Source: Escherichia coli (GTDB lineage Bacteria > Pseudomonadota > Gammaproteobacteria > Enterobacterales > Enterobacteriaceae). From it: a stretch of 64,000 bases of DNA. This document shows positions 7,194-27,667 of the stretch, in pieces. Location of the stretch: assembly GCF_050920415.1 (NCBI RefSeq), contig NZ_CP169309.1; one strand, written 5' to 3'. Made by a program: the position numbers and the translations under genes. The notes under the pieces are model-generated. The model searched no databases. It was not told the DNA's origin and saw nothing but the letters and a program-made list of their open reading frames with translations. Positions within the stretch are counted from its first letter, which is position 1. Every line of letters starts with the position of its first letter.

Positions 7194-8133
7194 ACTGAAG
7201 CGCCGGTTCCACATCTACCGCCAGCCAGGTCGGTCCGTCAAGATCGGCGAAACTGACCTGCGGCACCAGCGGTAAAGCGGCGCTAATGGCACGAGAGGTA
7301 CACAACATGCAGCCCAGCATCAGACTAAAACCTTGTGCACGTGCTTCAGTCGCCAGCGCCAGCGCTTCCGTCAGGCCACCCGTTTTATCGAGCTTAATGT
7401 TAACCATCTCATAGCGCCCTTGCAGCGCCTTCAGATTGCTACGAGTATGACAACTTTCATCTGCACAAATCGGTAACGGATGAATAAAATTCTCCAGTGC
7501 CGCATCGTCCTGCGCAGGAAGCGGTTGTTCAAGCATCGCAACGCCTAAATCCGCCAATAGCTGGCAACGCGCCGCCAACCCTTCTGAACGCCAGGATTCA
7601 TTTGCATCAACGATCAGCGTCGCATCGGGCACAGCTGTGCGAATTGCCACCATCCGCTCACTGATAAGATGGTTATCCAGCTTCACTTTCAGTAATTTCG
7701 CGCCTGCCTGCCAGAGTGTTGATGCACTATTGGCCATCTGATCAGGCGTACCGATGACTACCGTCTGGGCAGTGGTGACTGTCTCGGGAAGCGTTATGCC
7801 GATCAAATCAGCCAGCGATTGCTGCTGTTTTCGCGCCGCCAGATCCCACAATGCACAATCCAGCGCATTACGTGCTGCGCCGGCAGGGAGAATTTTTTGC
7901 AACTCCTCCCGTGTCAGCCCTTTCTCTAATTGCGGCACGACGCTCATAATTTGCGCCATTACCGAGGCATCACTTTCTCCATAACGCGGATACGGCGTGC
8001 ATTCACCGGTGCCTTTAATACCTTCTTCTTCCAGTTCAACCACCACCACGCGCGCTTCACTACGACTTCCCCGAGCAATCACAAACGGGGTATGTAAGGG
8101 CCAGGCTTCCTCAAATACCTTAACGGTTCTCAT
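7168..8133 (-). CDS. ycjG: L-Ala-D/L-Glu epimerase
   Basis: Enolase-superfamily translation MRTVKVFEEAWPLHTPFVIARGSR...; 321 aa; 3' end overlaps mpaA convergently. Confidence 0.85.
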   Translation of the reverse strand: MRTVKVFEEAWPLHTPFVIARGSRSEARVVVVELEEEGIKGTGECTPYPRYGESDASVMAQIMSVVPQLEKGLTREELQKILPAGAARNALDCALWDLAARKQQQSLADLIGITLPETVTTAQTVVIGTPDQMANSASTLWQAGAKLLKVKLDNHLISERMVAIRTAVPDATLIVDANESWRSEGLAARCQLLADLGVAMLEQPLPAQDDAALENFIHPLPICADESCHTRSNLKALQGRYEMVNIKLDKTGGLTEALALATEARAQGFSLMLGCMLCTSRAISAALPLVPQVSFADLDGPTWLAVDVEPALQFTTGELHL

Positions 8134-8251
8134 CTTTACTCCTTGTTGTCGCGGTGGTCTGCAGATTAAGCGCAAATAGCGTTTGCTGTGTTATTGACAG
8201 TTAGCATAAACTAGGTGTGACGTTAACTATATGTAAACAGGAAAGATAATC

Positions 8252-8758
8252 ATGTCACAAACCGTTCATTTCCAGGGCAACCCGGTTACAGTCGCCAATT
8301 CCATCCCGCTGGCGGGTAGCAAAGCGCAGACTTTTACTCTCGTGGCAAAAGATCTGTCTGACGTCACCCTCGGTCAGTTTGCGGGTAAACGCAAAGTGCT
8401 GAACATTTTCCCGAGTATTGATACCGGTGTTTGCGCCGCATCAGTACGTAAGTTTAACCAACTGGCAACCGAGATCGACAACACCGTTGTGCTGTGTATC
8501 TCTGCTGATCTGCCGTTCGCCCAGTCTCGTTTCTGCGGCGCAGAAGGTCTGAACAACGTTATCACCCTCTCCACTTTCCGTAACGCTGAATTCCTGCAAG
8601 CCTACGGTGTGGCAATTGCTGATGGCCCACTGAAAGGTCTGGCAGCGCGTGCCGTTGTGGTTATCGATGAAAATGACAATGTGATTTTCAGCCAGCTGGT
8701 TGATGAAATCACCACCGAGCCGGATTACGAAGCAGCTCTGGCTGTACTGAAAGCATAA
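8252..8758 (+). CDS. tpx: Thiol peroxidase
   Basis: 168 aa; [28 protein letters not shown]... Confidence 0.92.
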
Positions 8759-8762
8759 GTTA

Positions 8763-8795
8763 ATATGCCTGATGGTGTTGCACCATCAGGCATAT
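8763..8795. terminator. Hairpin between convergent tpx and tyrR (putative bidirectional terminator)
   Basis: Perfect 15-bp inverted repeat atatgcctgatggtg / caccatcaggcatat with a 3-nt loop. Confidence 0.55.
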
Positions 8796-8801
8796 TCGCG
8801 C

Positions 8802-10343
8802 TTACTCTTCGTTCTTCTTCTGACTCAGACCATATTCCCGCAACTTATTGGCAATCGCGGTATGCGAAACGCCGAGACGTTTTGCCAGTTTGCGCGTGCT
8901 GGGATAATTGCGATAAAGCTGACTTAATACCGAGCGTTCAAAACGGCTGGTAATTTCGTCCAGCGAACCTTCCATCGCATCTTCGCCCACGGCTACCGTT
9001 GCGGCGTCATAATCCGGCAACAAAATATCCTGAGGACGCAGCTCATAGCCGTCCAGTTGTGTCAGTGCGCGATAGATAGCGTTCTTTAACTGCCGCACAT
9101 TTCCCGGCCACGCATAACGCGTAAGTACAGTATTCAGGTCAGCGGCCAGTTTCGGACGCGGCACGCCCTGCTCGTCGGCAAAGCGGGCGACGAACAGCTC
9201 GGTTAACGGCATGATGTCCTGCGGACAGTCACGTAACGGCGGCAGATTGAGCGTCAACACGTTCAGACGATAATAGAGATCTTCACGGAACACGCCTTTT
9301 TGCACCAGTTCGACCAAATTCTTCTGCGTAGCGCAAATAACCCTTACATCGACATGCACTTCATGATCTTCACCAACTCGACGGAAAGTACCATCATTAA
9401 GGAAACGCAGTAATTTCGCCTGCATCCTTGGCGACATCTCGCCTATCTCATCTAACAGCACCGAACCACCGTTCGCCTGCTCAAAGAACCCTTTTTTACC
9501 TTCCGGAGCATGACCAAACAGTTCACTCTCGACCGCATCTTCCGGTATAGACGCGCAGTTCAGCGCCAGATAAGGTTTGCCCGCTCGTGGGCTTGCCTGA
9601 TGGCAGGCGTAGGCAAAGAGATCTTTACCTGTACCGGTGTCACCCGTAATCAGCAACGGCGCGCTTAGCATCGCCAGTTTCTGCGCCTGTTCGACAACAT
9701 GCTTCATTTTCGGGCTGACGGCGACAATTTGACTGAAGGCACTGACGTCCTGTGCAGCGACATTCTGCAACTGACGACCCATACGAATCGTCGAGCGCAA
9801 CATCACCACCGCACCGGTCAGAACGTGTTGATCATTTTCATCCTGAAGATAAACAGGCGTAATCTCCATCAGGAAATTCTGCCCATTAATAACGACATGC
9901 TCGTTATGCGAGTCTTGCGGTTCGCTTTCCAGCCAGCGTAAAAAATTAAAGCCGTTAATTAATTGCGCGGCGGTATGGTTGCGCAGGCGATCCAATTTTT
10001 GCCCAAAAAGCTGACAGCTCGCCGGGTTCGCCATATCCACTTTGCTTTTCATATCAACAGAAAGCACAGGCTCAGGCAACGCCTCCAGTAACGCGCTCAA
10101 CGCCAGATGCTCACGTTCGGAAGGCATCCACGGAACAGTGCGCACATCGGTAACACCTGCAATACGGCGTATTTCGGCCATCAGACTGCTGAAACTTTCA
10201 AATTCCAGTTCGGCAAAATTGAGGTAGATTCGCCCAATGGGGTCAATCTCAATACCGCGTAAATCAATACCTCTTAGCACGAGTAGATCGAGTAATTCGC
10301 GGGTCAGACCGAGTCGGTCTTCACAAAAGACTTCCAGACGCAT
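8802..10343 (-). CDS. tyrR: Transcriptional regulator TyrR (sigma54-type AAA+ fold)
   Basis: MRLEVFCEDRLGLTRELLDLLVLRGIDLRGIEIDPIGRIYLNF...; 513 aa from the internal ATG. Confidence 0.9.
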   Translation of the reverse strand: MRLEVFCEDRLGLTRELLDLLVLRGIDLRGIEIDPIGRIYLNFAELEFESFSSLMAEIRRIAGVTDVRTVPWMPSEREHLALSALLEALPEPVLSVDMKSKVDMANPASCQLFGQKLDRLRNHTAAQLINGFNFLRWLESEPQDSHNEHVVINGQNFLMEITPVYLQDENDQHVLTGAVVMLRSTIRMGRQLQNVAAQDVSAFSQIVAVSPKMKHVVEQAQKLAMLSAPLLITGDTGTGKDLFAYACHQASPRAGKPYLALNCASIPEDAVESELFGHAPEGKKGFFEQANGGSVLLDEIGEMSPRMQAKLLRFLNDGTFRRVGEDHEVHVDVRVICATQKNLVELVQKGVFREDLYYRLNVLTLNLPPLRDCPQDIMPLTELFVARFADEQGVPRPKLAADLNTVLTRYAWPGNVRQLKNAIYRALTQLDGYELRPQDILLPDYDAATVAVGEDAMEGSLDEITSRFERSVLSQLYRNYPSTRKLAKRLGVSHTAIANKLREYGLSQKKNEE

Positions 10344-10413
10344 GGGAACCTTCACCTGAAAAAAGAACAATTAATATGATGATATGACACTATTTGGATA
10401 GCAGGAAGGTTTC

Positions 10414-10431
10414 TGTCAACAATCATTGACA
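10414..10431. promoter_or_regulatory. TyrR-box-like palindrome in the tyrR upstream region
   Basis: tgtcaacaatcattgaca = TGTCAA-N6-TTGACA, close to the TyrR box consensus TGTAAA-N6-TTTACA. Confidence 0.4.
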
Positions 10432-10490
10432 CAAAGACGGAAAAACGGGCACTTCGGCGTAAAGATATCCGGTCAGCACCCGATATTGCA

Positions 10491-11552
10491 TTATTTTTCG
10501 CTGGGCGTTTTGCCTTTTTGCAGCGTCTCTTTCACCTGACCGATAAGCTGACGACGGAAATCCCCGAGGCGAGGTTTGTCATCGTCAATCCACGGCAGCG
10601 GGCGGCAAAGCTCCATAGCTTTAATCCCCAGTCGTGCCGTCAGAAGTCCAGCACCAATTCCCTGAGCTGCGCGGGTAGACAAACGCGCAGCGAGATCTTG
10701 CGACATCCAGTCCATCCCCACTTCGCGCACCAATTCGCTGGCTCCGGCAAAAGCGATATTCAGCAATACCAGCTTAAACAGGCGCAAACGGCTGTAATAT
10801 CCCAGTTCAATGCCATACAGCGTGGCGATGCGATTGATCAAACGCAGATTGCGCCAGGCGATAAATGCCATATCCACCAGCGCCAGCGGGCTAACGGCGA
10901 TCATTAACGTTGATTCCGCCGCTGAGCGACTGATTTCGCGCCGCGCCTGGGCATCTAAAACCGGCTGGACCAGATGAGCATACAGGCTGACCACTTCACG
11001 ATCGTTCTGCGTTTCATGGATTGAGGCATACCAGCGTTGCAGTGCCGGATGCGACTGGTCGATGCCCGCCTGCTGCGCCAGTTTTTCGCAGAATGCACGG
11101 CCTTTACCCGTGCCGTGGCTGTGCAACAAATCGCGCGCTTCGTCGCGTTCATGGGCGCGCTGTCGCAAGCGCCATAAGCGCCGCCACTCTGTTACCACAG
11201 AACCTACGCCAGCGCCGATAATCAATGCCCCAGCGGCACAGCCGCCCAGGGCCACCCAGTCCTGAGTTTGCCAGGCGTTCATCGTCCACTGCACACCCTG
11301 ACCAACAACGCTTGCACCAAACAGAGCCAACCCGCCCATCACCATTTTGCGCCACAGGCTGCGTTTCGGACGTAACGCTGCGTCCATCACCGCTTCAACT
11401 TGCCCCTCTTCTTCCTGCGCTTCGTCGAGCGTGGCCGGGGCAAAATTTTGCGCCTGATTTTCGTCAAAGGTCTGCTGCGCCCTGAATTTTGGATTCTGAT
11501 CGACCTCCAGTGGACCGTCGAAATCAATACGTGGTTTTAACGGTTCGGTCAT
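10491..11552 (-). CDS. ycjF: Inner membrane protein YcjF (DUF697-type)
   Basis: 353 aa; hydrophobic core segments; 4-nt overlap with ycjX. Confidence 0.8.
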
Positions 11553-12946
11553 CGCAATTTATCTCCTATTAAAAATTCCAGCGCAGCATCAAGGCGAATA
11601 TGCGGCAACGGTTTGTCGACATCCATTACCTGCGGGCGAAACGCCTCAAACTGGAAGCCTTGCTTATCCCAGAACGCCTGGCCAGGCAAACGTGCGGGAA
11701 CTTCGCCAGGATACACAGTGAGCGGTGCGCCATCGCTGAGTCGATTACCGCGCAGCGCCGGGATTTTCTCACCGTTAACATCAATAATGCCGCTGGTGGT
11801 CGCCTGAACTGACGCCAGCCCCAGGCAGTCCATGCTGATCCCTTCGAACGCCGCATTTTGCCAGGCATCCTGAATCAGTTGTTGCAGTAATGAAACCATA
11901 TTGGCGTGCTGATCGATGGTCACATGATCCGCTTTAGTGGCAGCAAACAATAGCTTATCGATAACCGGCGAAAACAAGCGCCGGAACAAGGTACGCTGCC
12001 CGTAGTGGAAGCTTTGCATCAGCTGCGTCAGCGCCAGACGCATATCATTGAATGCTTGTGGTCCACTGTTGAGAGGTTGCAGGCAATCCACCAGCACAAT
12101 CTGCCGATCAAAGCGCAGAAAATGATTTTTATAGAATCCCTTCACCACTTTCTCGCAGTAATAATTAAATCGTTCGCGCAGCATTCCGGCATTGGTGTGC
12201 TTGTCGGCTTGTGCTAGTTTTGATTCGCCCCAGGCATCGACATCTGGCCACGGGAAGAATTGCAGCGCGGGCGCACCTGCCATATCGCCCGGCAAGACAA
12301 AACGCCCAGGCTGAATAAAGTGCAGCCCCTGCTGTTTGCAGTGGTGGAGATAATCGGTCCATGCGGCAGCAATGTCTGCAAGACGGTTTTCGTCGGCAGG
12401 TGCTAGTGGGTCCAGCCCTTCGCACATCATTCGCCATTTTGCCGACCATTCGCCGCGCTGACCATTGAGTAAGCCCGTCATCTGGCGCGACCAGCTTAAA
12501 TAGTCCTGCGCCAACATCGGCAAGTCGAGTAACCATTCGCCAGGATAATCCACTATCTCCAGATACAACGTGGAAGTGTCTTTGAAGTGACGCAACAGCG
12601 AATCGTTCGATTTATAGCGTAGCGCCAGGCGAATCTCACTGACGCCGCGTGTTGGGGTTGGCCAGGCGGGAGGATCGCCATATAACTGCGCCAGCCCTTC
12701 ATCGTAGGTGAAGCGCGGAATGCCAAAGTCACGCTGGGGAATGCGTTTTACGCCCAGCAGGCGCTCTTCACGCACCGCACTTAATAGCGGCAAGCGTGCT
12801 CCGGCATGAATATTGAGCAACTGATTGACCATCGCAGTGATAAACGCGGTTTTGCCGCTGCGGCTAAGTCCGGTTACAGCGAGGCGCAGATGTCTGTCGA
12901 CACCCCGATTCACCAGCGCATTAAGTTCATTTTTAAGTCGCTTCAT
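11549..12946 (-). CDS. ycjX: P-loop NTPase YcjX (DUF463-type)
   Basis: [35 protein letters not shown]... (Walker A GLSRSGKT); 465 aa from the internal ATG. Confidence 0.8.
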
Positions 12947-13090
12947 TGCTGTCCTGTGGACCAGAAAAAAATCATTCGTAAGGATATGAATGTGGGGGCC
13001 ATGCCCTTGATTATCAACTGCCCGTGTTGTCATCTTGAGGCGAACTCCATAAGATGTGCAGCATTCACGTTCGGACGGAGTTCCTGACCT

Positions 13091-14089
13091 ATGTCCCCTA
13101 CTATTTATGATATTGCCAGGGTTGCCGGCGTATCAAAATCCACCGTATCACGCGTGCTGAATAAGCAAACCAATATCTCCCCGGAAGCGCGCGAAAAAGT
13201 GTTACGGGCCATTGAAGAATTACAGTATCAGCCAAATAAACTGGCCCGCGCGCTGACCTCTTCGGGCTTTGATGCCATTATGGTGATTTCTACCCGCTCG
13301 ACCAAAACTACGGCGGGTAACCCGTTTTTCTCCGAAGTTTTGCATGCCATTACCGCCAAAGCGGAAGATGAGGGTTTCGACGTGATATTGCAGACGTCGC
13401 ACAACCCGGCTGAAGACTTACAAAAATGTGAAAGCAAAATTAAGCAGAAAATGATTAAAGGCATTATTATGCTAAGTTCGCCAGCAGATGAGTCTTTTTT
13501 CGCCCAACTCGATAAATACGATATTCCGGTGGTAGTAATTGGCAAAGTTGAAGGTGAATATGCCCATGTTTATTCTGTCGATACCGATAATTTTGGCGAC
13601 AGTATTGCGCTGACCGATGCATTAATTGAAAGTGGACATAAAAATATTGCCTGCCTGCATGCTCCGCTTGATGTTCATGTTTCGGTTGATCGCGTTAATG
13701 GCTATAAGCAAAGTCTGGAAGATCATAATATTGCAGTGCGCAGTGAGTGGATCGTTGACGGCGGTTATACCCATGAGACAGCATTAAAAGCCGCACGGCA
13801 ATTATTAAGTCAGTCACCGTTGCCTGAGGCAGTGTTTGCTACTGACAGCCTGAAATTAATGAGCATTTATCGTGCGGCGGCAGAGAAAAACATTGCTATT
13901 CCGCAGCAGTTAGCGGTGGTGGGTTATAGTAATGAAACGCTGTCGTTTATATTAACGCCTGCACCGGGCGGCATCGATGTTCCGACGCAGGAGTTAGGTC
14001 AACAAAGCTGCGAGTTATTATTCCGCTTAATTGCCGGAAAACCGTCACCACAAAATATTACCGTTGCCACGCATATGTCGTTGAAATAA
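13091..14089 (+). CDS. ycjW: LacI-family transcriptional regulator
   Basis: 332 aa; N-terminal helix-turn-helix [24 protein letters not shown]. Confidence 0.85.
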
Positions 14090-14103
14090 ATGCCAGCTAC
14101 GTT

Positions 14104-14188
14104 GCCTGAATGCCGGATGCGATGCTGGCGCATCTTATCCGGCCTACATTTATAAACCGGATAAAGTACTCGCGCCGCATCCGGCAAT
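14104..14188. repeat. REP/BIME-type palindromic repeats
   Basis: gccggatgcgatgctggcgcatcttatccggcctac and an inverted ccggataaag...cgccgcatccggca copy. Confidence 0.5.
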
Positions 14189-14199
14189 TTAGCACATTA

Positions 14200-15105
14200 T
14201 CAGAACGCGTAATTCACACCGACACCTGCATAATGGAATTTATCGCTGTCGCCTTCATCGTGATCCTGCCACTCAAACGCGTATTCCAGCGAAACGGAAA
14301 GACCATTCTGGAAATCATAACCGTAAAACAAACCAAGACGGTTAAAATCATGGCCTTCACGTTCGATATCATCCTGCCAGTCCCAGTTACTCCAGCGATC
14401 CAACCCAATGCGCGTATACGGTGTTACCGAGTGATTGCCGAGCGTCAGCGGTAAATAGGCGCGAATTTCTTGCGTGGAGAATTCACCGTTATTGCGGCTG
14501 TCGTCCATATTGAAGCCGCGCTCGAGATAATAGTTCACCCGCAAGGCAACCGTTTCGTTGAAGGTATATTGCAGACCCGTTTCCGTTTCGACACGGGTAT
14601 CAGCATAACCGGTCGTATTCAGATCGTTGGCAAATTTATACATCGACAGCCAACCGTTGAAACGTAAATCGTCAGTCAGTTTCACATCCCAGTCTGGCGC
14701 GATTTTCCAGCGCTGCATATTTGCCGTGTCTTTACCCGGTTCATCAACGTAGTGATAACCATAGTTACGGAAACCACCGGTCAGGCCGAAACTGAAATCA
14801 TCGCTTTCGAGAAACTGATAATGCACTTCCAGTTCCGGGCGATCAAACCAGGTTCCACGTTTACCCGCGCTATAATCTACCGGCCCTTCCTGGTAATAAG
14901 CCAGCGATATTCTCCACGGCCCATTGGCAGCATTAAAATAGACGGAAGGCTCCGCCAGCCCGTCCATATCTTCGCCATAACCCTCAACGTTTTCTATTTC
15001 GTACATCGCGCCGATATTAAAGTGCCAGTCTTTTTTTTCCTCAGCCTGTGCGCAGGCCATTCCCGCACACATCACCAGTGCGGTACAGGGTAATAACTTT
15101 TTCAT
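14200..15105 (-). CDS. ompG: Outer membrane porin OmpG
   Basis: 301 aa; signal peptide MKKLLPCTALVMCAGMACA; beta-barrel sequence ending ...GVGVNYAF. Confidence 0.9.
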   Translation of the reverse strand: MKKLLPCTALVMCAGMACAQAEEKKDWHFNIGAMYEIENVEGYGEDMDGLAEPSVYFNAANGPWRISLAYYQEGPVDYSAGKRGTWFDRPELEVHYQFLESDDFSFGLTGGFRNYGYHYVDEPGKDTANMQRWKIAPDWDVKLTDDLRFNGWLSMYKFANDLNTTGYADTRVETETGLQYTFNETVALRVNYYLERGFNMDDSRNNGEFSTQEIRAYLPLTLGNHSVTPYTRIGLDRWSNWDWQDDIEREGHDFNRLGLFYGYDFQNGLSVSLEYAFEWQDHDEGDSDKFHYAGVGVNYAF

Positions 15106-15149
15106 TATTGTTCCTTGTATTATCCTGGGGGAATGCCTTCCCCCTGTAT

Positions 15150-16232
15150 TTAGCGAATTGCTATTTCCGTTTCTGCATCAAAGAAATGACATTTGGTCAT
15201 ATCAAAATGAATAGTGACGTTTTCTCCTGCATGATAATCATTTAACGCACCGGCACGGACCACCAGCTCGTGCCCCCCAACCGTGGTGTAGAGCATAAAT
15301 TCCGCACCGGTTAATTCCGCCACGCTAATTTTGGCGGAAATGTTATTTTCCTCTTGCGCATCCGGATGAATATCCTCCGGGCGTATTCCCATCACGATGG
15401 GTTTATGCAAACTTTCCTGCGTTTTCAGAACGGCTAATTTATCTTCGGGAATGGTTAATTTAAGCGTTTCCGTAACGAATTTATCGCCATCGATCGTGCC
15501 GCGAATAAAATTCATTGCTGGTGACCCAATAAATCCGGCAACAAACATATTCGCCGGTTGGTTATAGACCGTTTTCGGCGCACCGACCTGCTGAACAATC
15601 CCATCCTTCATAATGACAATCCGCGTCGCCATGGTCATCGCTTCGGTCTGATCGTGGGTCACGTAGATCATGGTGGTGTTCAGTTTCTGATGCAGCTTGC
15701 TGATTTCCGCGCGCATTTGTACGCGCAGCTTGGCATCCAGGTTAGAGAGCGGTTCATCCATCAAAAACACGCCCGCTTCACGCACAATCGCCCGTCCGAG
15801 CGCCACACGCTGGCGTTGCCCGCCGGAAAGCGCCCCCGGCTTGCGTTTCAGGTACTCACGCAGGCCGAGGATTTGCGCCGCCCAGTTAACCCGCTCATCA
15901 ATCACCTCTTTGGCGATTTTTTGCATCTTCAGGCCAAACGCCATGTTGTCGTAGACCGTCATATGCGGATACAGCGCGTAGTTCTGGAAAACCATCGCAA
16001 TATTGCGCGCTTTGGCCGGAACGTCATTCATTCGTTTGCCGTCGATCAACAGATCGCCGCCGCTGATCTCCTCAAGCCCGGCAATCATACGCAGCGTCGT
16101 CGATTTACCGCAGCCCGACGGACCGACAAACACGATGAACTCTTTATCGGCAATCTCCAGGTTGAAGTCCTTCACCACATGCACCTGGTTATCGTAGATC
16201 TTTTGAATATGTTGTAACGAAAGCTGTGCCAT
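15150..16232 (-). CDS. ycjV: ABC transporter ATP-binding protein (MalK-like), intact
   Basis: 360 aa with Walker A GPSGCGKST, signature LSGGQRQR and Walker B FLMDEPLSNLD; uninterrupted frame. Confidence 0.85.
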   Translation of the reverse strand: MAQLSLQHIQKIYDNQVHVVKDFNLEIADKEFIVFVGPSGCGKSTTLRMIAGLEEISGGDLLIDGKRMNDVPAKARNIAMVFQNYALYPHMTVYDNMAFGLKMQKIAKEVIDERVNWAAQILGLREYLKRKPGALSGGQRQRVALGRAIVREAGVFLMDEPLSNLDAKLRVQMRAEISKLHQKLNTTMIYVTHDQTEAMTMATRIVIMKDGIVQQVGAPKTVYNQPANMFVAGFIGSPAMNFIRGTIDGDKFVTETLKLTIPEDKLAVLKTQESLHKPIVMGIRPEDIHPDAQEENNISAKISVAELTGAEFMLYTTVGGHELVVRAGALNDYHAGENVTIHFDMTKCHFFDAETEIAIR

Positions 16233-16245
16233 GTTGATTCCTTTG

Positions 16246-16905
16246 CTATACGTTTTGCCAGAAGGCCGATAACCGCGGCCAGGTCAGAGATTCCGTTGAG
16301 GGCAGCAACAGTTGCGCCCCGGTTAAGCTCGTGCCGATCCCCACCGAGCGCATACCGCTGGCGTTAATGGCGTCAATGCCCGCCTGCGCATCTTCAATGC
16401 CAATGCAGGCCTGTGGAGGCACGCCCAGCCCGGCACAGGCGGCGAGAAAGATTTCCGGATCCGGTTTCGAGTGTTTAAGTTGGGAAGCGTCCGCGCAGAA
16501 GGTGAAAAACTCGCGCAGCTCCAGCGCCGCTAAAATTGTTGGGGCATTCAGAGAGACGGAGGCCAGCCCTACCGGGATGCCTTGCGCCCGAAGATCTGCC
16601 AGCAAAGGCCGAATTCCCGGCAGAACAGCGTTAACCGTCAGTTCGCGCAGTGAGTGGACGTAGAGCAGATTTTTGCGATACGCCAGTTGCGCCCGCTCTT
16701 GCACGTTAAAGTCGCCCTCTTTGCCCCCGTGTTGCAGAATGCGCCGCAGGGACTCATCGCGGCTGATCCCTTTTAACGTCTCGTTAAATTGCGCATCGAT
16801 GCTGATGCCGATTTCGGCGGCAATCTGCTGCCATGCCTGGAAGTGCAGATGTGCGGTGTCGGTGATCACGCCATCCAGATCGAAAATTACCCCTTGTAGT
16901 TTCAT
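16246..16905 (-). CDS. ycjU: Beta-phosphoglucomutase (HAD family)
   Basis: 219 aa; [20 protein letters not shown] motif. Confidence 0.85.
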
Positions 16906-19169
16906 TCATCCTCCTGATGTTTGGTAGCGGTCCCATTGAAGGGCAAAATAAAATCACCCAAACAGAAAACAGATTCTTCAGTCACGGAAATAAGCTGACC
17001 GTTCAACCGCATTGAAACGGGCGCAGAAGTTCGAATCGCAATACGCTGCGCGTCGAGAGTGACCTGTAATTCGCAGCCCTGCCAGAACAAAGGGAAAGAT
17101 AACTGTTGCCACTGCTCAGGTAACGCTGGGTTCAGATGTAATTCGCCGTCGCGCACGCTGACTCCGGCAAAACCCTGAATCGCCCCCAGCCAGATAGCGC
17201 CAGTTGCGGCGGCATGGATACCGTCATCGCAGCTATGCGGATCAGCACCAAGATCGATTTCACTCCCCTCGCGCCAGAACGGGTAACTCTGCGCAAGCAA
17301 GCCACAACGCGCGGCAACAATGCCGTGGATCGCTTTACTCAATGACGAGTCGTGAATGGTGCGCGGTTCATAAAATTGCAGATTGGCGAGACAAGAGGCC
17401 GCTGAAAATTGTTCTGGTAGCATGTAATTGAGCATCACCACATCGGCCTGCTTGAGGATCTGCATCTCGTTCACTTCTGCGCGTGAATAATCCAGCAGAA
17501 TGGTTTGTTTGCCTGCCGCCGCTTTGTATTTCGCCAGATCTATCGCCGGTTTCGCCATAAACGAATCATCCTGCGGCAAAACGCCGTCGGGCTGAATTTC
17601 TGGCATCCACAGCTCTTTGAGGAACATGTCGGCACGATGAATAAACGCATCGTCGCTACAGCCAAACTGGCGAGCAATATTCAGTGCCTGTTGGACGTTG
17701 TAGCAGGCCATATAACTTGTGTATGCGTTATTGTTAACGTGTTCGGTATATTCGTCTGGCCCAATAACATCATGAATTTCCAGACGATCGTTAACCCTTA
17801 CCGCGCGGCTAATCCAGAACTTTGCGGTCTCCAGCAGTAGCGCCATGCCTTCGTGAGCAACGAAGCTTTCATCCCCCGTTACCTGCCAGTATTGAATAAC
17901 CGCCCAGGCGATATCGGCAACCAGATGATGTTCCGCCTGCGCTGAGGCCACTTTTTGCCGTAGCCCGGTACGAATGTTTATGGCGGCAAATTCCGGGGTC
18001 TCTTCTTCGCCGCTGCGTGCGCTTTCCCACGGAAATAGCGCGCCCTGCCAGCCATTGCGTCGCGCTTTCTCCTGCGCCCCCGGTAAGTTGTGCCAGCGAT
18101 AGCGCAGCAAACTCCGGGCAATCGTCGGTTCGCTAAACAGATGGAACGGCAGCAGGAACACTTCCGTATCCCAGAAAACATGGCCTTTGTAGCCTTCCCC
18201 GGTTAAGGCTTTTGCCGCAATGCTGCTACGCTCGTCGTGGGCGGGCGTCATAATACGCAAATGATAAAGCGCATAGTCTAACGCCCGCTGATCGTGCGTA
18301 TCGCAACTCTTTACCGTGATACGACGTTTCTGCCACCATTGCTGCCAGTTTTCTGTCGATGCTGCAAGAAGTTGGTCATAACTCTGTTGTGTACACATTT
18401 CAAGCTGGCGAAGCGACGCACTGCCCCACTCGTCTAAAGCGGCTTGTCGGTCATCCCGCCAGTCAATCCACACCCGCTTTTGCAAGGTCAGTGTTTCACC
18501 TGTGCGAAGTTGCGCGCTGGTATGTTGCAGCAAACGGCGCTCTTTGGCGGTATAGCACTGCTGAACGTCACCACTCGCCTGACAGTGACAACTGATTGCC
18601 ACATCACTGCGCCCATCCTGGGTGGTGTAGATCCCCTGCATCAAATGCTGACCAAACACCCGGACCTGGGTTTCATCCAGATGCTGGCGACCGTGGTTGG
18701 TTTGCGTGGCGTTAATGCCTGTTGAGATCAGCACTGATGCCTCGGCGTCCAGCGGGGTAATACTGATTTCCAGCGCGATCAGCGGCAGTTGATCTGTCGA
18801 AACAAAACGACGACTTGCAAGGGTAAACCGTGCGCCGTCGCTGCTGCGCCAGATAACACTGCGGCGTAATTCTCCACTGGCAAAGTCAAGCTCACGCTGC
18901 CACGCTTCGCGGGATAACGAAAAAATCTCGCCGTTTAGGGTAATTTCCATTCCCACCACGTCTGGCAGATTCACCAGTTCGTTGATTTCTCCTTTCCCGG
19001 CTCGATGATAAAGCCCTGCCAGATACATGCCGCGCGTCTGCCGCGTGTAATCTTCTTCATGGCTGGCACGAAGCCCAAGATAGCCGTTCCCCTGCGCCAT
19101 TAATGAGGCATATTTATTCAGGGTATGCTGGCTGAATTGGGGTTCCGTTAATGTTACTGGCCTGGTCAT
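16902..19169 (-). CDS. ycjT: Glycoside hydrolase family 65 phosphorylase (kojibiose phosphorylase)
   Basis: 755 aa; overlaps ycjU and ycjS by 4 nt. Confidence 0.85.
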
Positions 19170-20221
19170 AATTCCACACGCATCCCTGTTTCTGCGGATT
19201 GATACAGCGCCGCCACCAGTTGCTGGATGATGTACCCTTGCTCGGCGTCGGCAATCATCACAGGCTTGCCCTGTACGTGATTGATAAAGGCTTCCATGCT
19301 GCGCAAATGACGGTTGTCGTCGGCCAGTTCCCGTTGCATCAGCGTCATTAATTCACCGTTGTTATCGGTGTAGATATGCGCCGGAAACAGCGTGGCTCCC
19401 GCTTTATCGCCGCAAAAGCTGACGTTCATCATCGACTGTTCGCGGATGTTGAGTGCAAATGATGTCTCCAGCAAAAGAATGCCGCCGTTATGAAATTCAA
19501 TGGTGCCAAACAGCGAATCTTCGACGCTGTAGGTTGCCGGGTCCCACTCACCAAATTGACCACAGCTCTTTTGAGTACCTATTTTCTGAAAGCTGTGCGC
19601 CGTGACGCTTTTCACCGCCGGAAAGCCCAGCACATACATCGCGGCATCCAGCATATGAATGCCAATGTCGATCAGCGGGCCGCCACCCTGCAGTTCTTTA
19701 TTGGTAAAGACACCCCAGCCGGGAACGCCGCAGCGACGCAGGGCGCGGGCGGTCGTGACGTAAATCTCACCCAAAACGCCGTTGGTCACCTGTTCACGCA
19801 ATTGTTGCGTATCAAGGGCAAAACGATGGTGAAAGTCGTAGGCCAGCACCTTGCCCCGTTTGCGCGCGGTATCACACATCTCCCGCGCCTGTTCTGGTGT
19901 CATGGCGGGCGGTTTCTCGCACATCACATGGCAGCCTGCCTCCAGCGCCATCAGGGTATGCTCGTAATGAAAACGGTTAGGTGAACAGACGCTTACCACG
20001 TCAGGTTTTACCGCCAGCAGCATGGCCTGCGGATCGTCCCACACGGATGCGTTCCCGTATTTCTCTGCCAACGCCTGCGCCTGGGAAAGGCGGCTGTCAC
20101 AGACAGCCACCAGTTCCAGATCGTTGCGGGTGCAGTAGTACGAAGCATGAACCTTATCCGCCACCTGGCCCGCGCCTATTATCGCGACCCGCAGCGGAGA
20201 GCTTGTCATTGCACTTTTCAC
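19166..20221 (-). CDS. ycjS: Gfo/Idh/MocA-family NAD-dependent sugar dehydrogenase
   Basis: 351 aa; Rossmann motif VAIIGAGQVADKVH. Confidence 0.85.
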   Translation of the reverse strand: MKSAMTSSPLRVAIIGAGQVADKVHASYYCTRNDLELVAVCDSRLSQAQALAEKYGNASVWDDPQAMLLAVKPDVVSVCSPNRFHYEHTLMALEAGCHVMCEKPPAMTPEQAREMCDTARKRGKVLAYDFHHRFALDTQQLREQVTNGVLGEIYVTTARALRRCGVPGWGVFTNKELQGGGPLIDIGIHMLDAAMYVLGFPAVKSVTAHSFQKIGTQKSCGQFGEWDPATYSVEDSLFGTIEFHNGGILLLETSFALNIREQSMMNVSFCGDKAGATLFPAHIYTDNNGELMTLMQRELADDNRHLRSMEAFINHVQGKPVMIADAEQGYIIQQLVAALYQSAETGMRVEL

Positions 20222-20230
20222 AAAGACCTC

Positions 20231-21019
20231 TTAGCAGGTGCGCAACCAGGCCAAAGAATCACGGTACGCCTGAGCAGGATCTTCTGCCCGAATGCGCCCT
20301 TCATACACCACATAGCCCTGATAGTTATCGGCGCGCAGCTGTTCAAACAGCGCGTGGAAATCGAGGGTGCCGCTGCCCGGCTGATAGCGATGGTTATCGG
20401 CAATATGCACATGACCAAGCAGGTCACGGTTGTCATGCAGCGCCTGCGCCAGGTTATCCTCTTCGATGTTCATGTGATAGAAATCGCCGATAATCTGCAC
20501 ATGTTTAAGGTTGTTTTCGACGATGTAACGACGAGCATCGGCGAGCGTGTTGATCATGTGGTCCTGATAGCGGTTTAGCGGTTCGAGATACACCACCGTT
20601 CCGGTACGCGCGGCCACCTTTTCCAGGAAACGCAGGGAATCGCTCACCATTTGACGATCGCCGTCCAGGCTGCGCGGTGAGGTCATCGGCGGTAAGCGGA
20701 AGGTAAACATGCCCCACGCAGCCGGAACGACAATACCTTTACCGCCCACTTCCGCCAGCGCCTCAAGAATGCGCTCGATCTGCTTTAAACCATTAAGACG
20801 ACGCTCTTCGATAAAGTCGCCAATCCAGCCGTCATAGCCGCCGCAGGCGGTGGTCACCGGTAAACCGGTTTCTTTGATCGCTGCTTTGACTTCTTCGAGA
20901 TTGTTGACCAGCAGTTTGCCGTCAATCTCAAAACCATCAAAACCCATCTCTTTGATATAACGAAATTTCTCCAGAATATTTTCCGGAAAGAAGGCCTGAT
21001 TCTGTGTGCCGATTTTCAT
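20231..21019 (-). CDS. ycjR: Sugar phosphate isomerase/epimerase (TIM barrel)
   Basis: 262 aa; MKIGTQNQAFFPENILEKFRYIKEMGFDGFEI. Confidence 0.85.
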   Translation of the reverse strand: MKIGTQNQAFFPENILEKFRYIKEMGFDGFEIDGKLLVNNLEEVKAAIKETGLPVTTACGGYDGWIGDFIEERRLNGLKQIERILEALAEVGGKGIVVPAAWGMFTFRLPPMTSPRSLDGDRQMVSDSLRFLEKVAARTGTVVYLEPLNRYQDHMINTLADARRYIVENNLKHVQIIGDFYHMNIEEDNLAQALHDNRDLLGHVHIADNHRYQPGSGTLDFHALFEQLRADNYQGYVVYEGRIRAEDPAQAYRDSLAWLRTC

Positions 21020-21035
21020 TTTTCCGTCCTTAGAA

Positions 21036-22088
21036 TTAAAAAGTTACGCCCATTTTGATGCTCTGTTCCGGATGCTGGTCGACATACTGCATGTAGCTTT
21101 CCGGGCTGTTAGCAAAGGTCACCACCGGGTCGATTAAATCTTCACAATTGAGATAACCGTTCATCAGCAGTTCCCAGCAGGTTTCTTCAATACGCTTGCG
21201 GCTCCAGCGCGGATAATCCGGGTTCGGTTCACTGCACGCACGAGAGAAGACAATTTTGGCGTTGTTGAAATGCGCTTCGCGTCCGAGGTTAAAACCTTCG
21301 GCAAATGGTTTGGCAAATGCGACATACGAGATGGTGCCGCCATAAGCCAGGCCGCGCAGTGCCGATTGCAGCGCGTCGGCGTAGCCGCTGGTTTCGATAA
21401 TCACATCGGCACCCTGCTTGCCGGTCAGCGTTTTAATCTCTTTGCCTACATCCGTGCCAATGGGGTTAAGGCAGAAATCCGCCCCGTGGCGACGGGCAAT
21501 ATCACAGCGATGAGCGATAGGATCGACACCAATCACCACCGACGCGCCAGCGCGTTTTGCCAGTTGAATGGCAATTTGACCAATCGCGCCAAGCCCGACT
21601 ACCACCACAAAATCGCCCACACGCACGTTGGCATCGCGCACGCCGCTCATGGCAAACTGCGCCGGGTCGTAACAGACGGCGTTTTTCCACGAGCTACCTT
21701 GCGGCATTTTGCGCAGTTTGTAGTTATTCACCGCGTTAATGATGACCGTTTCGGAAAGCGGGCCGTAGCCGCATACGCTGTCGCCCACCGCGTAGTCGGT
21801 AACCTCGCTGCCGCACTCGATAATGTCGCCAACCACCATGTTGCCAAGCTGGAACTTGCCAAACTCAATGCCGCGCGGCGCATCTGCCGGACGGGGGGTG
21901 AACATCTGCCATTCGCCATTAAAGTCTTCATTAATAAACGGGCTGGCGGCGCGGAAATCGACCACTTCCGTCCCGTGTTTCGGCGCGCCGAACCGCACGC
22001 GGATCTTCACTTCATTGGCTGAAATCGCCCTGTCTTCATACTCCACCAACGCGGCAACGCGCGGTGCTGTGGCTACTAACTTTTTCAT
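21036..22088 (-). CDS. ycjQ: Zn-dependent medium-chain dehydrogenase
   Basis: 350 aa; GVDPIAHRCDIARRHGAD region typical of MDR dehydrogenases. Confidence 0.85.
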   Translation of the reverse strand: MKKLVATAPRVAALVEYEDRAISANEVKIRVRFGAPKHGTEVVDFRAASPFINEDFNGEWQMFTPRPADAPRGIEFGKFQLGNMVVGDIIECGSEVTDYAVGDSVCGYGPLSETVIINAVNNYKLRKMPQGSSWKNAVCYDPAQFAMSGVRDANVRVGDFVVVVGLGAIGQIAIQLAKRAGASVVIGVDPIAHRCDIARRHGADFCLNPIGTDVGKEIKTLTGKQGADVIIETSGYADALQSALRGLAYGGTISYVAFAKPFAEGFNLGREAHFNNAKIVFSRACSEPNPDYPRWSRKRIEETCWELLMNGYLNCEDLIDPVVTFANSPESYMQYVDQHPEQSIKMGVTF

Positions 22089-22118
22089 GTAAAACTCCTT
22101 GTCAAGAAACTGGCCGCT

Positions 22119-22961
22119 TTAGCCCTTCACGCCACCGGCGGTCAAACCACTCTTAATAAAACGTTCCGAAAGTGCATACATAATCACCACCGGCAATGCG
22201 GTCACCAGCGAGGCCGCCATCATTCGGCCCCAGATGTAATCAGGGGTACTGAACAGCGCGTTCAGGCCTACCGGTAAAGTGAAATTGCTGGCGCTGGAGA
22301 GGAAAATCGAGGCAAACAGATAGTCGTTCCACGCCACCATAAAGCAGTAGACGAACACGGATATCAGCCCGGACATCGCCAGCGGTACCGTGATGCGGAA
22401 GATGATTTGCAGCCGGTTGAGGCCATCCATCATCGCCGCTTCTTCGATTTCATCGGGGATGGTGTCGAAGTAGCTTTTCAGCATAAACACAGCGGTAGGC
22501 AGGGTTTGCGTCACCATGGTGATGATCAGCGCCATCTCGGTGTCATAAACGCCAAGCGCGGTGATGATTTTGAACAGCGGCACCACCAGCAAAATGCCGG
22601 AGAACATGTACACCGTGTAAAAGCTGGCGTTGATGGTCATTCGCCCTTTAAAGCGCAGGCGGGAAAGCGCGTAAGCCCCGAGAATGCCGAGAAATACTGC
22701 TATCACGGATGAAACTACCGACACCACCAGGCTGTTACGGAAATAATCGACAAACGGGAAAATCACCGGGTTAAAAATGTCGACGTAATGCTCCAGCGTC
22801 CACTGCTGTGGCAGCAGCGTAGGATGCAGCGAGATCGCCTCTTTCGCGCTTTTGAACGAGGTCATCAGCATCACAAAAAAGGGAAACAGCGTGATGATGA
22901 GAAACAGCGCCAGCCCGCAGTAAAAACCGATGCGACTGAGTGTGCGTTTATTTGTTGCCAT
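22119..22961 (-). CDS. ycjP: ABC transporter permease
   Basis: 280 aa; multi-pass hydrophobic sequence; overlaps ycjO. Confidence 0.85.
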   Translation of the reverse strand: MATNKRTLSRIGFYCGLALFLIITLFPFFVMLMTSFKSAKEAISLHPTLLPQQWTLEHYVDIFNPVIFPFVDYFRNSLVVSVVSSVIAVFLGILGAYALSRLRFKGRMTINASFYTVYMFSGILLVVPLFKIITALGVYDTEMALIITMVTQTLPTAVFMLKSYFDTIPDEIEEAAMMDGLNRLQIIFRITVPLAMSGLISVFVYCFMVAWNDYLFASIFLSSASNFTLPVGLNALFSTPDYIWGRMMAASLVTALPVVIMYALSERFIKSGLTAGGVKG

Positions 22962-23829
22962 TGAGGTTCACCCGTTTTCTGGTCAGCAGAATGACAGCGA
23001 AAATAATGATGAAGAGCACCACTGAGATCGCCGCCGCTTTCCCTAAGTCATTAAAGGCAAAGGCGGTTTTGTAGAGATAGACGCCGAGAATATCGACCTT
23101 GGTCGTCAGCAAATAAACGTCAGCGAACATGTAGAACATCCAGATGGTACGCAGAGTCACCACCGTCGCCAGGACCGGCATAATCGCGGGCAGCGTGACG
23201 ATGCGAAACCGTTGCCAGGCATTCGCGCCGTCCATCTCTGCCGCTTCGTACAGCGATTTATCAATGGTCTGCAAAATCGCCAGAAACGAGATAAAGGCAT
23301 ACGGGAAGTAGCGCCAGATGGCGAACAGCACCACCAGCACAAAACTACTGCCCGGGTTATCGAACCACAGCGGCGCCTGCTCATAGAGATGCAGAAGATC
23401 GACGCCGAGGTAGTTCACAATGCCGTAGCCGTTGTTGAACATGTATTTCCAGGCGAACACCAGCGAAATGGACGGCGTTACGTAGGAGAGGATTACCAAC
23501 GAACGCGCGGTTTTGCGCAGGCGAAACTCGCGGTTGAAAAACATCGCCACCGCCAGGCCGAGCACGGTGCTACCTGCCACCACCAGCGCGGTATACCAGA
23601 CCGTCATCCACAGCGAGTGCCAGAAGCCGGGATCGGAGAGAATACGCACATAGTTGCTCACCCCAACAAACGTTGCCTCGATGTTGGGATTGAGCGGCAG
23701 ACGTAAAAAACTAATTTCGATATTCGACACCATTGGCCACGCCACCAGACCGCCCAGCAGTAATAAGCTGGGCGCGAGAAGCAGCAGCGCAAAGGGCATA
23801 TCGGAACGACCTGAAAAAAGCCTGTTCAT
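22948..23829 (-). CDS. ycjO: ABC transporter permease
   Basis: 293 aa; MalF/G-like membrane protein. Confidence 0.85.
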   Translation of the reverse strand: MNRLFSGRSDMPFALLLLAPSLLLLGGLVAWPMVSNIEISFLRLPLNPNIEATFVGVSNYVRILSDPGFWHSLWMTVWYTALVVAGSTVLGLAVAMFFNREFRLRKTARSLVILSYVTPSISLVFAWKYMFNNGYGIVNYLGVDLLHLYEQAPLWFDNPGSSFVLVVLFAIWRYFPYAFISFLAILQTIDKSLYEAAEMDGANAWQRFRIVTLPAIMPVLATVVTLRTIWMFYMFADVYLLTTKVDILGVYLYKTAFAFNDLGKAAAISVVLFIIIFAVILLTRKRVNLNGNK

Positions 23830-23849
23830 TGCGGATTCCTGTCCTGGGA

Positions 23850-25142
23850 TTAGTGCTGTTCGATCAGTTCATCCAGCTTTTTCTGGCTCGCTTGCAGCGT
23901 GGTTGAGAGATCGGCTTTCCCCACGGTGACGTTATGCACCATTGAACTCACCACACCAGACCCCGTCACATCGCCCATGCGGGTAAAGTTTTTGTCCCCT
24001 ACCGCACCAAAGACCTGAATGTTTGGCAGTTCGCTAATCAACTGATTCGGCAAGTCTCCCAGCGCCTTAATCACGTCGTTATCTTTCCAGGTGGCAGTCG
24101 TCACAACCGCTTTGTTCACCGGCAGCGCCGCGCCTGGCGACATCATCACCCAGTCGGCAATGTTGTCCGCCTGCTCCATAAAGGTGACAAATTTTTCTGC
24201 CGCTTCCGTCTCTTCGCTCTTTTGCCCGGCGGTAATGGTCAGCGAGGTCAACATGCCGTAGACCGCCGAGTTTTTCTCGGTTGGCACCACGAAACCGACA
24301 TTTTTCGGGTCACCTTCTTTAATCACAGCCGGAAGGATATAGGTGGAGTAAATCGCCATCGGCGCGGTGCCGTTCATAAAGGCGTCTTTCACTTCCATAA
24401 TGTCGTTAGAACCCGGCATGGTGTTGGCAGCAAGGTCGCGGTAATAGGTCAGCGCCTGCATCATCTCCGGCGTATCAAGGGTGATTTTGCCTTCGGCGTT
24501 AAAAACGTTGGCCTGATTGGATAACGCAAACTGAGAGAACGATTGTTCCGTCAGTACGCTTTCTGCCGTCGGCAGTGCAATACCGTATTTTTTATTCGCC
24601 GGATCGTTCAGTTTCTGTGCGACATCCAGCAACTGTTGCCAGTTTTTCGGCTCATCCAGCCCGGCTTTTGCCAGCACATCTTTGCGATACCAGATACCGC
24701 CAATCCATGCGCTGACAGGAACACCGGTCCAGGCGCTACCATCTTCGGTGCGCACAATCCGCAGAACGCCGTCATAAAACGCGCCTTCACCGACATTACT
24801 GATGACCGTAGCAACCGCTTTGCGATCGATAAGCTGTTCTTTGTCCATCACTTTCGCGTAGTCATGGCTGGTTTCGATCACTTCCGGCAGCGAGCCGCTA
24901 CGGGAAAGGGTGATGACTTTGGTGTTATAGGCATCTTCTTCCACCGGCACTTGTTTAACAGTGATGCCTGGGTTTTCTTTTTCAAAACGCGCAATTAAAT
25001 GACTAATTACCGCCTGGCGTTCCTGTTCCACCGAAGAATGCATAAACTCGATGGAAACATTCGTTTTATTTTCTTCTTTACAACCTGAAATCAGGGCGCA
25101 GGAAACCAGTGCTGATAACAGCACGATTTTTGATTTAATCAT
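23850..25142 (-). CDS. ycjN: ABC transporter periplasmic sugar-binding lipoprotein
   Basis: 430 aa; lipobox MIKSKIVLLSALVSCALISGC. Confidence 0.85.
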   Translation of the reverse strand: MIKSKIVLLSALVSCALISGCKEENKTNVSIEFMHSSVEQERQAVISHLIARFEKENPGITVKQVPVEEDAYNTKVITLSRSGSLPEVIETSHDYAKVMDKEQLIDRKAVATVISNVGEGAFYDGVLRIVRTEDGSAWTGVPVSAWIGGIWYRKDVLAKAGLDEPKNWQQLLDVAQKLNDPANKKYGIALPTAESVLTEQSFSQFALSNQANVFNAEGKITLDTPEMMQALTYYRDLAANTMPGSNDIMEVKDAFMNGTAPMAIYSTYILPAVIKEGDPKNVGFVVPTEKNSAVYGMLTSLTITAGQKSEETEAAEKFVTFMEQADNIADWVMMSPGAALPVNKAVVTTATWKDNDVIKALGDLPNQLISELPNIQVFGAVGDKNFTRMGDVTGSGVVSSMVHNVTVGKADLSTTLQASQKKLDELIEQH

Positions 25143-25155
25143 GAGATGTTCCTTT

Positions 25156-27048: not shown

Positions 27049-27363
27049 TTAACCTTTGACCTTCGGCATTGCGATGTCTTTCAGGCCGCCAGCGTTCTCA
27101 ACGTGGGTATATCCCATCTCGCTAAGGATCTCTTTTGCCTGCCCTGACTGGCGTCCGGCATTGCAATACACTTTCACGGTGTCGTTTTTATCCGGAACGG
27201 CGGTGGCAATGCGCTCTTTCACTTCCTTCAGGGGAATATTGATGGCTCCCTGAACGTGCTCTTGCTGATACTGCTCTGGAACACGAACATCGATCCAGTG
27301 TTCAGCGGCGAAAACGGGCAGTGAAAACACCAGTGTCAGAGCAAGTAAGCCTTTTTTAAACAT
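27049..27363 (-). CDS. pspE: Thiosulfate sulfurtransferase (rhodanese) PspE
   Basis: 104 aa; signal peptide plus rhodanese motif VKVYCNAGRQSGQA. Confidence 0.9.
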   Translation of the reverse strand: MFKKGLLALTLVFSLPVFAAEHWIDVRVPEQYQQEHVQGAINIPLKEVKERIATAVPDKNDTVKVYCNAGRQSGQAKEILSEMGYTHVENAGGLKDIAMPKVKG

Positions 27364-27437
27364 GTAAGCGTCCTTCTATGGATGAAAATTGCCATCCATA
27401 ATACGCCTTAGCTTTAACAATTTTTGCGAAACTCCCC

Positions 27438-27659
27438 TCACCTTTTATAACGCTGCGCCAGTTTATTGGCAGCCCGACTTAACAGCGGTTCCAGCGCCAC
27501 GGCCAGCAACATTTTCAGCGGTCGGCGAGCAACTGATTTTATCGCCCAGCCAGCTACACCTGCCGGGCCATAGCGCAGTGCGGTAAGAAGTACCAGCTTG
27601 CCTGCTAATTTGAAACCAGGCTTCACCTTTTGCCCGGCCTGTTGCCAGCGAGTATTCAT
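27438..27659 (-). CDS. pspD: Phage shock protein D
   Basis: [22 protein letters not shown]...; 73 aa. Confidence 0.85.
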
Positions 27660-27667
27660 AACTTTCC

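Follow-up and report, generated by a model that had tools for sequence, protein, structure and literature searches.

What do the products of ycjX and ycjF do, and do they do it together? The question is raised by positions 10491 to 12946 of a 64,000-nucleotide stretch of Escherichia coli DNA (assembly GCF_050920415.1, contig NZ_CP169309.1; this whole stretch is the window below), for which a preliminary description, made from the sequence alone, had noted an overlapping gene pair encoding a P-loop NTPase and a multipass membrane protein of poorly defined role. For the pair, that last judgment still stands: the literature up to mid-2026 yielded nothing beyond data on expression, work on synteny, and mutations noted in passing, and no validated function was found in it. 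For YcjX by itself, the biochemistry is defined in part, and publications already cover the genes, their family names, the structure of YcjX, the control by sigma-32, and the linkage to the phage-shock (psp) genes. Taken as a whole, our observations are best explained if YcjX is a GTPase switch that is tethered by YcjF and acts in inner-membrane stress, a reading in which we place about even confidence. The conserved coupling of the two genes and a predicted contact between their products carry this reading.

Translational coupling of ycjX and ycjF

The locus is the ordinary, previously annotated ycjX-ycjF operon of E. coli. Megablast recovered the stretch 10300-13100 in 5415 of 5426 complete E. 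coli genomes, in which the pair is single copy, core, and fixed in its chromosomal position; the annotation of the matched genomes reads tyrR, ycjF, ycjX, ycjW everywhere, with gene lengths identical to those of K-12, and the window shows nothing unusual for this pair. The pair had been named correctly in the preliminary description, with open reading frame (ORF) limits, Pfam, and RefSeq in agreement. The two genes and their junction are as follows.

11549-12946, minus strand: ycjX coding sequence, 465 amino acids (aa), YcjX-family (DUF463) Ras-like GTPase (ORF list, PF04317, RefSeq limits)
10491-11552, minus strand: ycjF coding sequence, 353 aa, predicted inner-membrane DUF697/TIGR01620 protein (ORF list, PF05128, TIGR01620)
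11549-11552, minus strand: ATGA start/stop overlap of ycjX and ycjF, read from the sequence
11563-11567, minus strand: AGGAG Shine-Dalgarno sequence of ycjF, 10 nt upstream of its ATG and within the last ycjX codons

The plus strand reads tcat at 11549-11552, i.e., ATGA on the minus strand, in which the ATG of ycjF (11552-11550) and the TGA of ycjX (11551-11549) interlock. The 4-nt overlap reported earlier is thus present in the window, and it demonstrates that ycjX and ycjF are translationally coupled. The same 4-nt overlap occurs in 91 of the 95 loci read, down to 30% identity, and three more loci have 7 nt. A first batch of 85 gene pairs, made up of 80 genome-scan loci (all Enterobacterales) and the first distant look-ups, gave the 4-nt overlap in 82; one further pair (L089) also truly has 4 nt, and the remaining two are one 7-nt contig counted twice. 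In five more distant loci, read afterwards, the overlap was 4 nt in all five. The distant set comprised 11 representatives with 29-41% identity to E. coli YcjF, 10 of them with enough flanking sequence, and a DUF463 gene lay directly upstream of ycjF in all 10, overlapping it by 4 nt in nine and by 7 nt in one. The conserved GDKL C terminus of YcjX supplies, through its Gly-Asp codons, the AGGAG of ycjF. Since these codons are conserved as the junction GGnGAyAAAyTGnnATGA in relatives down to 30% identity, the YcjX C terminus doubles as the ribosome-binding region of ycjF. We regard the retention of the coupling across distant loci as strong evidence that the two products are required jointly and at a fixed ratio.

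YcjX as a Ras-like GTPase

YcjX matched PF04317 (DUF463) with 606 bits (cutoff, 25; E value, 5.6e-182), residues 20-464 covering model positions 1-443 of 443, and contains no hydrophobic segment. The G1, G3, and G4 motifs of a GTPase are all present.

12848-12871, minus strand: Walker A/G1 codons, GLSRSGKT (residues 26-33), read from the sequence
12536-12550, minus strand: G3/Walker B codons, DYPGE (residues 133-137), read from the sequence
11927-11938, minus strand: G4 guanine-specificity codons, TKAD (residues 337-340), read from the sequence

The Walker A motif is the one that had been pointed out beforehand. Among 11 diverse YcjX sequences (36-51% identity), G26, G31, and K32 of Walker A, D133 to W138 including the Walker B residue E137, and K338 and D340 of G4 are invariant. 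A phmmer search of the Protein Data Bank (PDB) matched residues 6-464 to the "YcjX stress protein" of Shewanella oneidensis (6NZ4, 6NZ5, and 6NZ6; 6NZ5_A, E value of 2.6e-124), and the fold of YcjX is that of this solved protein. Going by citing papers and the PDB entry names, the crystal structures of Tsai et al. (2019, J Mol Biol 431:3179) reportedly show a GTP-binding protein of the Ras-like kind. We conclude that YcjX is a soluble Ras-like GTPase, with hydrolysis predicted here from its motifs. The label "P-loop NTPase" was therefore correct but dated, since the structural characterization of Shewanella YcjX narrows it to GTPase; neither sigma-32 nor the psp linkage had been mentioned with it. 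The Shewanella structures come from another species and were solved without YcjF, so that they inform on binding and not on the job of the pair.

The closest folds to YcjX among its structural neighbors are the Arf, Sar1, SR-beta, and Rag switches, at 10-19% sequence identity. With these GTPases and their membrane receptors (SR-beta/SR-alpha, Sar1/Sec12), the YcjX-YcjF pair shares a working principle and not a family: YcjX, at 465 aa, contains large insertions of helical and beta structure, and YcjF is unrelated to any known guanine nucleotide exchange factor, GTPase-activating protein, or receptor. We also considered a dynamin-like membrane-remodeling motor and rejected it, the dynamin family being absent from the top 60 structural neighbors.

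YcjF and its predicted contact with YcjX

YcjF belongs to PF05128 (DUF697; 188.1 bits; cutoff, 27.7; E value, 1.2e-55) and to NCBIfam TIGR01620 (432.8 bits; cutoff, 160; E value, 1.1e-129). The predicted protein has an acidic tail at its N terminus, then a membrane hairpin of two helices and a DUF697 domain, which is helical and probably dips into the membrane.

11436-11486, minus strand: predicted YcjX-docking motif in the cytoplasmic N-terminal tail of YcjF, residues 23-39 (F23, F29-D30, F37; fused model and conservation)
11190-11345, minus strand: predicted YcjF transmembrane hairpin, TM1 at about residues 70-90 and TM2 at about residues 99-121 (hydropathy, charge flanks, AlphaFold model)
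10530-11006, minus strand: YcjF DUF697 domain, residues 183-341 (Pfam, alignment, model)

Apolar runs at residues 70-84 and 99-121 correspond to the two membrane helices, at about 70-90 and 99-121, whose cytoplasmic flanks carry charges of +4 and +3 and whose connecting loop carries -1; by the positive-inside rule, the hairpin is predicted to have both its N and C termini in the cytoplasm. A third apolar stretch of 13 residues (214-226), with positive charge on both sides, is interrupted by the invariant S221-P222, the predicted hairpin tip of the DUF697 domain. Hydropathy, charge flanks, and the AlphaFold model concur on two membrane helices and a reentrant stretch, in keeping with the multipass protein of the preliminary description. 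In an alignment of 107 sequences (25-72% identity, the window protein included), D200, D227, R234, Y246, G298, and R317 are invariant, and conservation in the tail is limited to position 23 (hydrophobic), F29 with an acidic neighbor after it, and position 37 (F, L, or W). We found no solved structure resembling YcjF or DUF697. A scan of 1.84 billion representative proteins returned 1472 YcjF-family clusters (903 at an E value of 1e-10 or below), and nearly all of the best matches listed are stand-alone proteins of 330-400 aa. DUF697 is reported in Pfam to occur at times in fusion with GTPase domains; no such fusion was seen among the nearest 150 family representatives and the long outliers scanned. 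Two apparent fusions (ADH and ABC) are single-member clusters that look like assembly chimeras, and we set them aside. Residues 223-272 (approximately 10737-10886, minus strand) also resemble Pfam EcsC (PF12787) below threshold (14.6 bits; cutoff, 30.4; E value, 0.027), which may hint at a wider superfamily or be due to chance.

We modeled YcjX and YcjF fused by an artificial tether with AlphaFold and compared the result with a model of the YcjF monomer. The fused model reached a predicted template modeling score (pTM) of 0.76, a value that would be hard to attain if the bodies of 465 and 290 residues, with about 90 disordered residues between them, were placed randomly, which argues that the YcjX-YcjF contact is real. 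Residues 26-35 of YcjF scored about 62-67 in the predicted local distance difference test (pLDDT) in the monomer and 95 once fused, and strands not seen in the monomer formed at 27-29 and 37-39; residues 46-65 dropped to a pLDDT of 33-43. From this model and the conserved tail positions, we infer that the tail segment may dock on YcjX as a short linear motif.

Start codon, promoter, and leader of ycjX

The longest in-frame ORF of ycjX reaches back to an ATG at 13033 (494 aa), a start that no annotation uses and that lies upstream of a putative sigma-32-type promoter. We place the start at ATG 12946, as in the preliminary description, because the promoter falls between 13033 and 12946 and because an AGGA precedes 12946.

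12952-12955, minus strand: AGGA Shine-Dalgarno sequence of ycjX, 6 nt upstream of ATG 12946
12990-13017, minus strand: putative sigma-32-type promoter (match to the sigma-32 consensus)

The sigma-32 consensus is CTTGAAA-N13/14-CCCCATNT. On the minus strand of the window, TTGATAA (13017-13011) is followed after a 13-nt spacer by CCCCACAT (12997-12990), and this arrangement, TTGATAA-N13-CCCCACAT, resembles the consensus; K-12 has the same hexamers. As quoted in PMC3041696, RegulonDB places ycjX under sigma-32 control (Nonaka 2006) and records a transcription unit ycjX-ycjF-tyrR, and we found no terminator-like site between ycjF and tyrR in 10344-10490. Both ycjX and ycjF are upregulated at the RNA and protein levels during infection by phiX174 and appear in multistress lists. 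Point mutations in ycjX are listed for heat-evolved and plasmid-adapted strains (two papers), without functional information, and a SELEX study of minor sigma factors and a mention of DUF697 in cyanobacteria were likewise uninformative.

The 5' leader of ycjX contains UCAUAUCCUUACGAAUGAUUU (12977-12980, minus strand, with the A at 12979), identical to the "ycjX-5p" site of A-to-I editing by TadA, for which the supplement of PMC13170351 lists 3-15% editing at NC_000913.3:1384073. Between the T-run and the Shine-Dalgarno sequence, the leader is 11 nt shorter than that of K-12, and no unusual RNA structure was predicted in it (z-score, 0.67). An Rfam search of 8000-14500 gave no RNA family match besides a subthreshold REP-like element between ycjW and ompG (14079-14144, plus strand; naRNA4, RF02564; 39.4 bits against a gathering score of 59.5).

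Gene neighborhood and linkage to psp

In the window, ycjXF lies outside the PspF/sigma-54 psp operon. The start of ycjX (12946) is separated from the end of pspE (27049) by 14.1 kb, in which 12 sugar-cluster genes and the divergent regulator ycjW are found; the sugar island ycjM-ycjW itself spans 13.7 kb.

8802-10343, minus strand: tyrR, downstream neighbor, syntenic with ycjXF in many Gammaproteobacteria (ORF list, gene mapping)
13091-26835, no strand assigned: ycjM-ycjW sugar-utilization island, between ycjX and psp (gene mapping)
27049-30117, no strand assigned: pspF/pspABCDE locus, ancestral upstream neighbor of ycjXF (gene mapping)

Elsewhere the psp genes are close at hand: of 85 loci from Enterobacterales and other Gammaproteobacteria, 55 have pspC, pspD, or pspE directly upstream of ycjX, with a spacer of at most 55 nt, the Yersinia-type operon, in 12 of these 55, and the ycjW and ompG sugar cluster takes this place in 22 loci. 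Downstream of ycjF, most Enterobacterales loci and 4 of the 10 distant ones have tyrR, either alone or preceded by phhA. Three of the 10 distant loci read pspF/pspABC-ycjXF, and two of the three continue with phhA-tyrR. Huvet et al. (PMC3041696) reported ycjX in 32 of 81 psp operon structures and ycjX next to ycjF in almost all species, and the operon of Yersinia enterocolitica is pspABCD-ycjXF, the same two genes in the same order with the same phage-shock linkage. In Yersinia they belong to a PspF-driven operon, whereas the pair of the window is split off by 13.7 kb and has its own predicted sigma-32-type promoter. The simplest reading is that of an ancestral block pspABCD(E)-ycjXF-tyrR within which Escherichia and Citrobacter acquired the sugar island; in the island lineages, ycjXF would have kept or gained a sigma-32-type promoter of its own, as predicted from the hexamers. 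The psp linkage of E. coli ycjXF is ancestral and not current. That different stress regulons drive ycjXF in different lineages fits a role in inner-membrane or proteostasis stress.

Some loci depart from this layout. In Citrobacter, Escherichia albertii, and one genome labeled E. coli (loci L003, L004, L096, and others), pspE stands between ycjW and ycjX, so that the island sits elsewhere in the psp-ycjXF junction than in K-12 and the window. The Enterobacter hormaechei plasmid pFJMB80181_1 (NZ_AP025834.1, L096, 1-24489) carries over 24 kb of Citrobacter-like chromosomal DNA, with ycj sugar genes, ompG, ycjW, pspE, ycjX, ycjF, tyrR, tpx, ycjG, mpaA, and mppA. Such plasmids are IncHI2A conjugative megaplasmids, and the YcjF domain occurs on 55 Enterobacter plasmid records, nearly all at 95-99% identity; the plasmid copy of ycjXF looks like a passenger rather than selected cargo. 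In two distant loci without psp, a small ORF abuts ycjX upstream (L083, 4394-4615, 73 aa; L091, 2824-3009, 61 aa), neither ORF having a Pfam match, and a TyrR-like sigma-54-type activator follows ycjF.

Purifying selection on a divergent haplotype

Relative to K-12, 84 of the 1398 positions of ycjX differ and change only 4 amino acids (99.1% aa identity), and the 51 differences among the 1062 positions of ycjF are all synonymous (100% aa identity). With synonymous distances (dS) of 0.30 and 0.24, the corresponding ratios of nonsynonymous to synonymous distance (dN/dS; Nei-Gojobori) are 0.013 and 0.000, showing that purifying selection on ycjXF is extreme, close to absolute.

The block 11549-26835, from ycjX to ycjM, has dS values of 0.24-0.45 against K-12, and the flanking psp, tpx, and ycjG have values of 0.06-0.12. 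This divergent block suggests that the sugar island and its edge were imported by recombination from a divergent Escherichia lineage. Over 10300-13100, 2 of the 5415 matched E. coli genomes are at least 99% identical to the window, and 3647 fall at 90-95%. Within the block, ycjV (15150-16232, minus strand), encoding the ATPase of an ABC transporter, is intact at 360 aa; in K-12 it is annotated as a pseudogene split into ycjV and ymjB.

Discussion

How might a GTPase and a membrane protein made from overlapping genes work together? We propose that YcjX and YcjF would be produced at a fixed ratio and assemble into a single complex, in which the N-terminal tail motif of YcjF, around F23, F29, and F37, would dock YcjX and thereby tether it to the inner membrane. 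YcjX would then serve as a nucleotide-dependent switch in the manner of Arf, Sar1, and SR-beta, rather than as a dynamin-like motor, and would gate the conformation or the assembly of a DUF697 domain partly embedded in the membrane at its cytoplasmic leaflet. The module would be deployed when the inner membrane or the folding of membrane proteins is under stress, via sigma-32 in E. coli and, in genomes of the Yersinia and Serratia type, probably by read-through from the PspF/sigma-54 psp operon, and it would act beside Psp, in parallel, rather than within it. We put forward only tentatively, and with more doubt than trust, the further proposal that YcjX-YcjF is a bacterial counterpart of the eukaryotic pairs of receptor and small-GTPase switch, in which GTP binding would remodel the leaflet-embedded DUF697 domain and so repair or stabilize a stressed inner membrane. 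If true, the pair would be a second effector arm that evolved next to Psp/ESCRT-III and was later uncoupled in E. coli.

Several points weigh against the tethered switch and its link to membrane stress. The docking prediction draws on pLDDT and pTM only, an artificial tether can favor contacts in a fused model, and rows of the YcjF-only alignment are partly misaligned at the N-terminal residues; the topology of the DUF697 domain is derived from charge and hydropathy alone. The strict sigma-32 motif occurs in 15 of the 22 ycjW-type loci and is rare elsewhere. No experiment ties a membrane phenotype to the pair, and among nonpolar deletions in Yersinia, robust phenotypes were obtained only for pspF, pspA, pspB, and pspC and none for ycjXF. 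Huvet et al. (PMC3041696) argued that in E. coli the conditions under which psp is expressed differ from those for ycjXF, and DUF463 occurs without Psp in many genomes (PMC3041696; Popp et al. 2022). The physiological link of DUF463 proteins to Psp is described as still unknown by Popp et al. (2022), and one of the two papers on psp evolution (2022 and 2024) calls the link merely "predicted."

Among the alternatives, the one that fares best takes YcjF for a channel or transporter that YcjX would gate with GTP, much as a G domain controls the membrane permease in FeoB. Such a device agrees with the obligatory GTPase partner, with the invariant charged or polar residues D227, R234, E273, R294, Q297, and R307 within the hydrophobic DUF697 helices, with the glycine-rich helices (GIGAGLL), and with the success of a clone overexpressing ycjF in the first of two Ala-Ala tolerance screens, which were part of a search for D-alanine exporters. 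However, YcjF has too few membrane spans and no channel-like fold, and we consider a channel improbable.

It is also quite improbable, in our judgment, that the target of YcjX lies in the cytosol, for instance the ribosome or a translation factor, with YcjF merely coexpressed or a storage site. The model for such an activity is HflX, a GTPase of the heat shock (sigma-32) regulon of E. coli that splits ribosomes and has no membrane partner. YcjX, unlike HflX, has an obligatory membrane partner and none of the HflX-type domains (Pfam), and its matches to ribosome-directed GTPases concern the shared G domain only, small Arf/Rag-type GTPases scoring equally well or better. The retention of gene order and overlap in all informative loci, however distant, and the specific contact with YcjF predicted by the fused model likewise speak against a solitary YcjX.

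A role in conflict with phages deserves mention because Ravi et al. (2024) file the psp-linked GTPase under the "DO-GTPase family" of Kaur et al. (2020); ycjXF would then be an NTP-dependent anti-phage system whose membrane-disrupting effector, YcjF, is released on infection. A TRAFAC-type GTPase, a Walker B glutamate (that of DYPGE in YcjX), and a frequent membrane association are common to ycjXF and the DO-GTPase/GAP1 systems, and the pair is induced during phiX174 infection. Yet a single-copy core pair, present in 5415 of 5426 genomes with a dN/dS near zero, is the opposite of what an arms race would leave, and ycjXF has neither a second, paralogous GTPase nor a GAP1-type partner, variable effectors, or the behavior of a defense island. 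Pfam returned only DUF463 and DUF697 and, besides the subthreshold EcsC, nothing else at E values up to 10, and PADLOC gave no match. We consider this role very unlikely. Least credible of all is a function in aromatic amino acid physiology with TyrR, such as the sensing or export of an aromatic compound, which the position of tyrR after ycjF (alone or behind phhA, in most Enterobacterales and 4 of 10 distant loci) and the recorded ycjX-ycjF-tyrR transcription unit might suggest but which is at odds with the absence of tyrR from 6 of the 10 distant loci, the lack of any aromatic-pathway gene coupled to the pair, and a stress induction unrelated to the TyrR regulon.

Returning to the YcjF-tethered switch, its interest lies in the standing of the pair, which is among the better-conserved gene pairs of Gammaproteobacteria without a function and is switched on by heat and envelope damage. 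Our analysis adds new computational leads: a candidate docking motif in YcjF, a YcjF without a relative of solved fold, a YcjX close to Arf and SR-beta and not to dynamin, and a view of the E. coli sugar island as inserted within a psp-ycjXF-tyrR block. Modest as they are, the leads on the docking motif and on the insertion history bring the question closer to a test, and a role for ycjXF would fill a gap in our picture of how bacteria protect their inner membrane.

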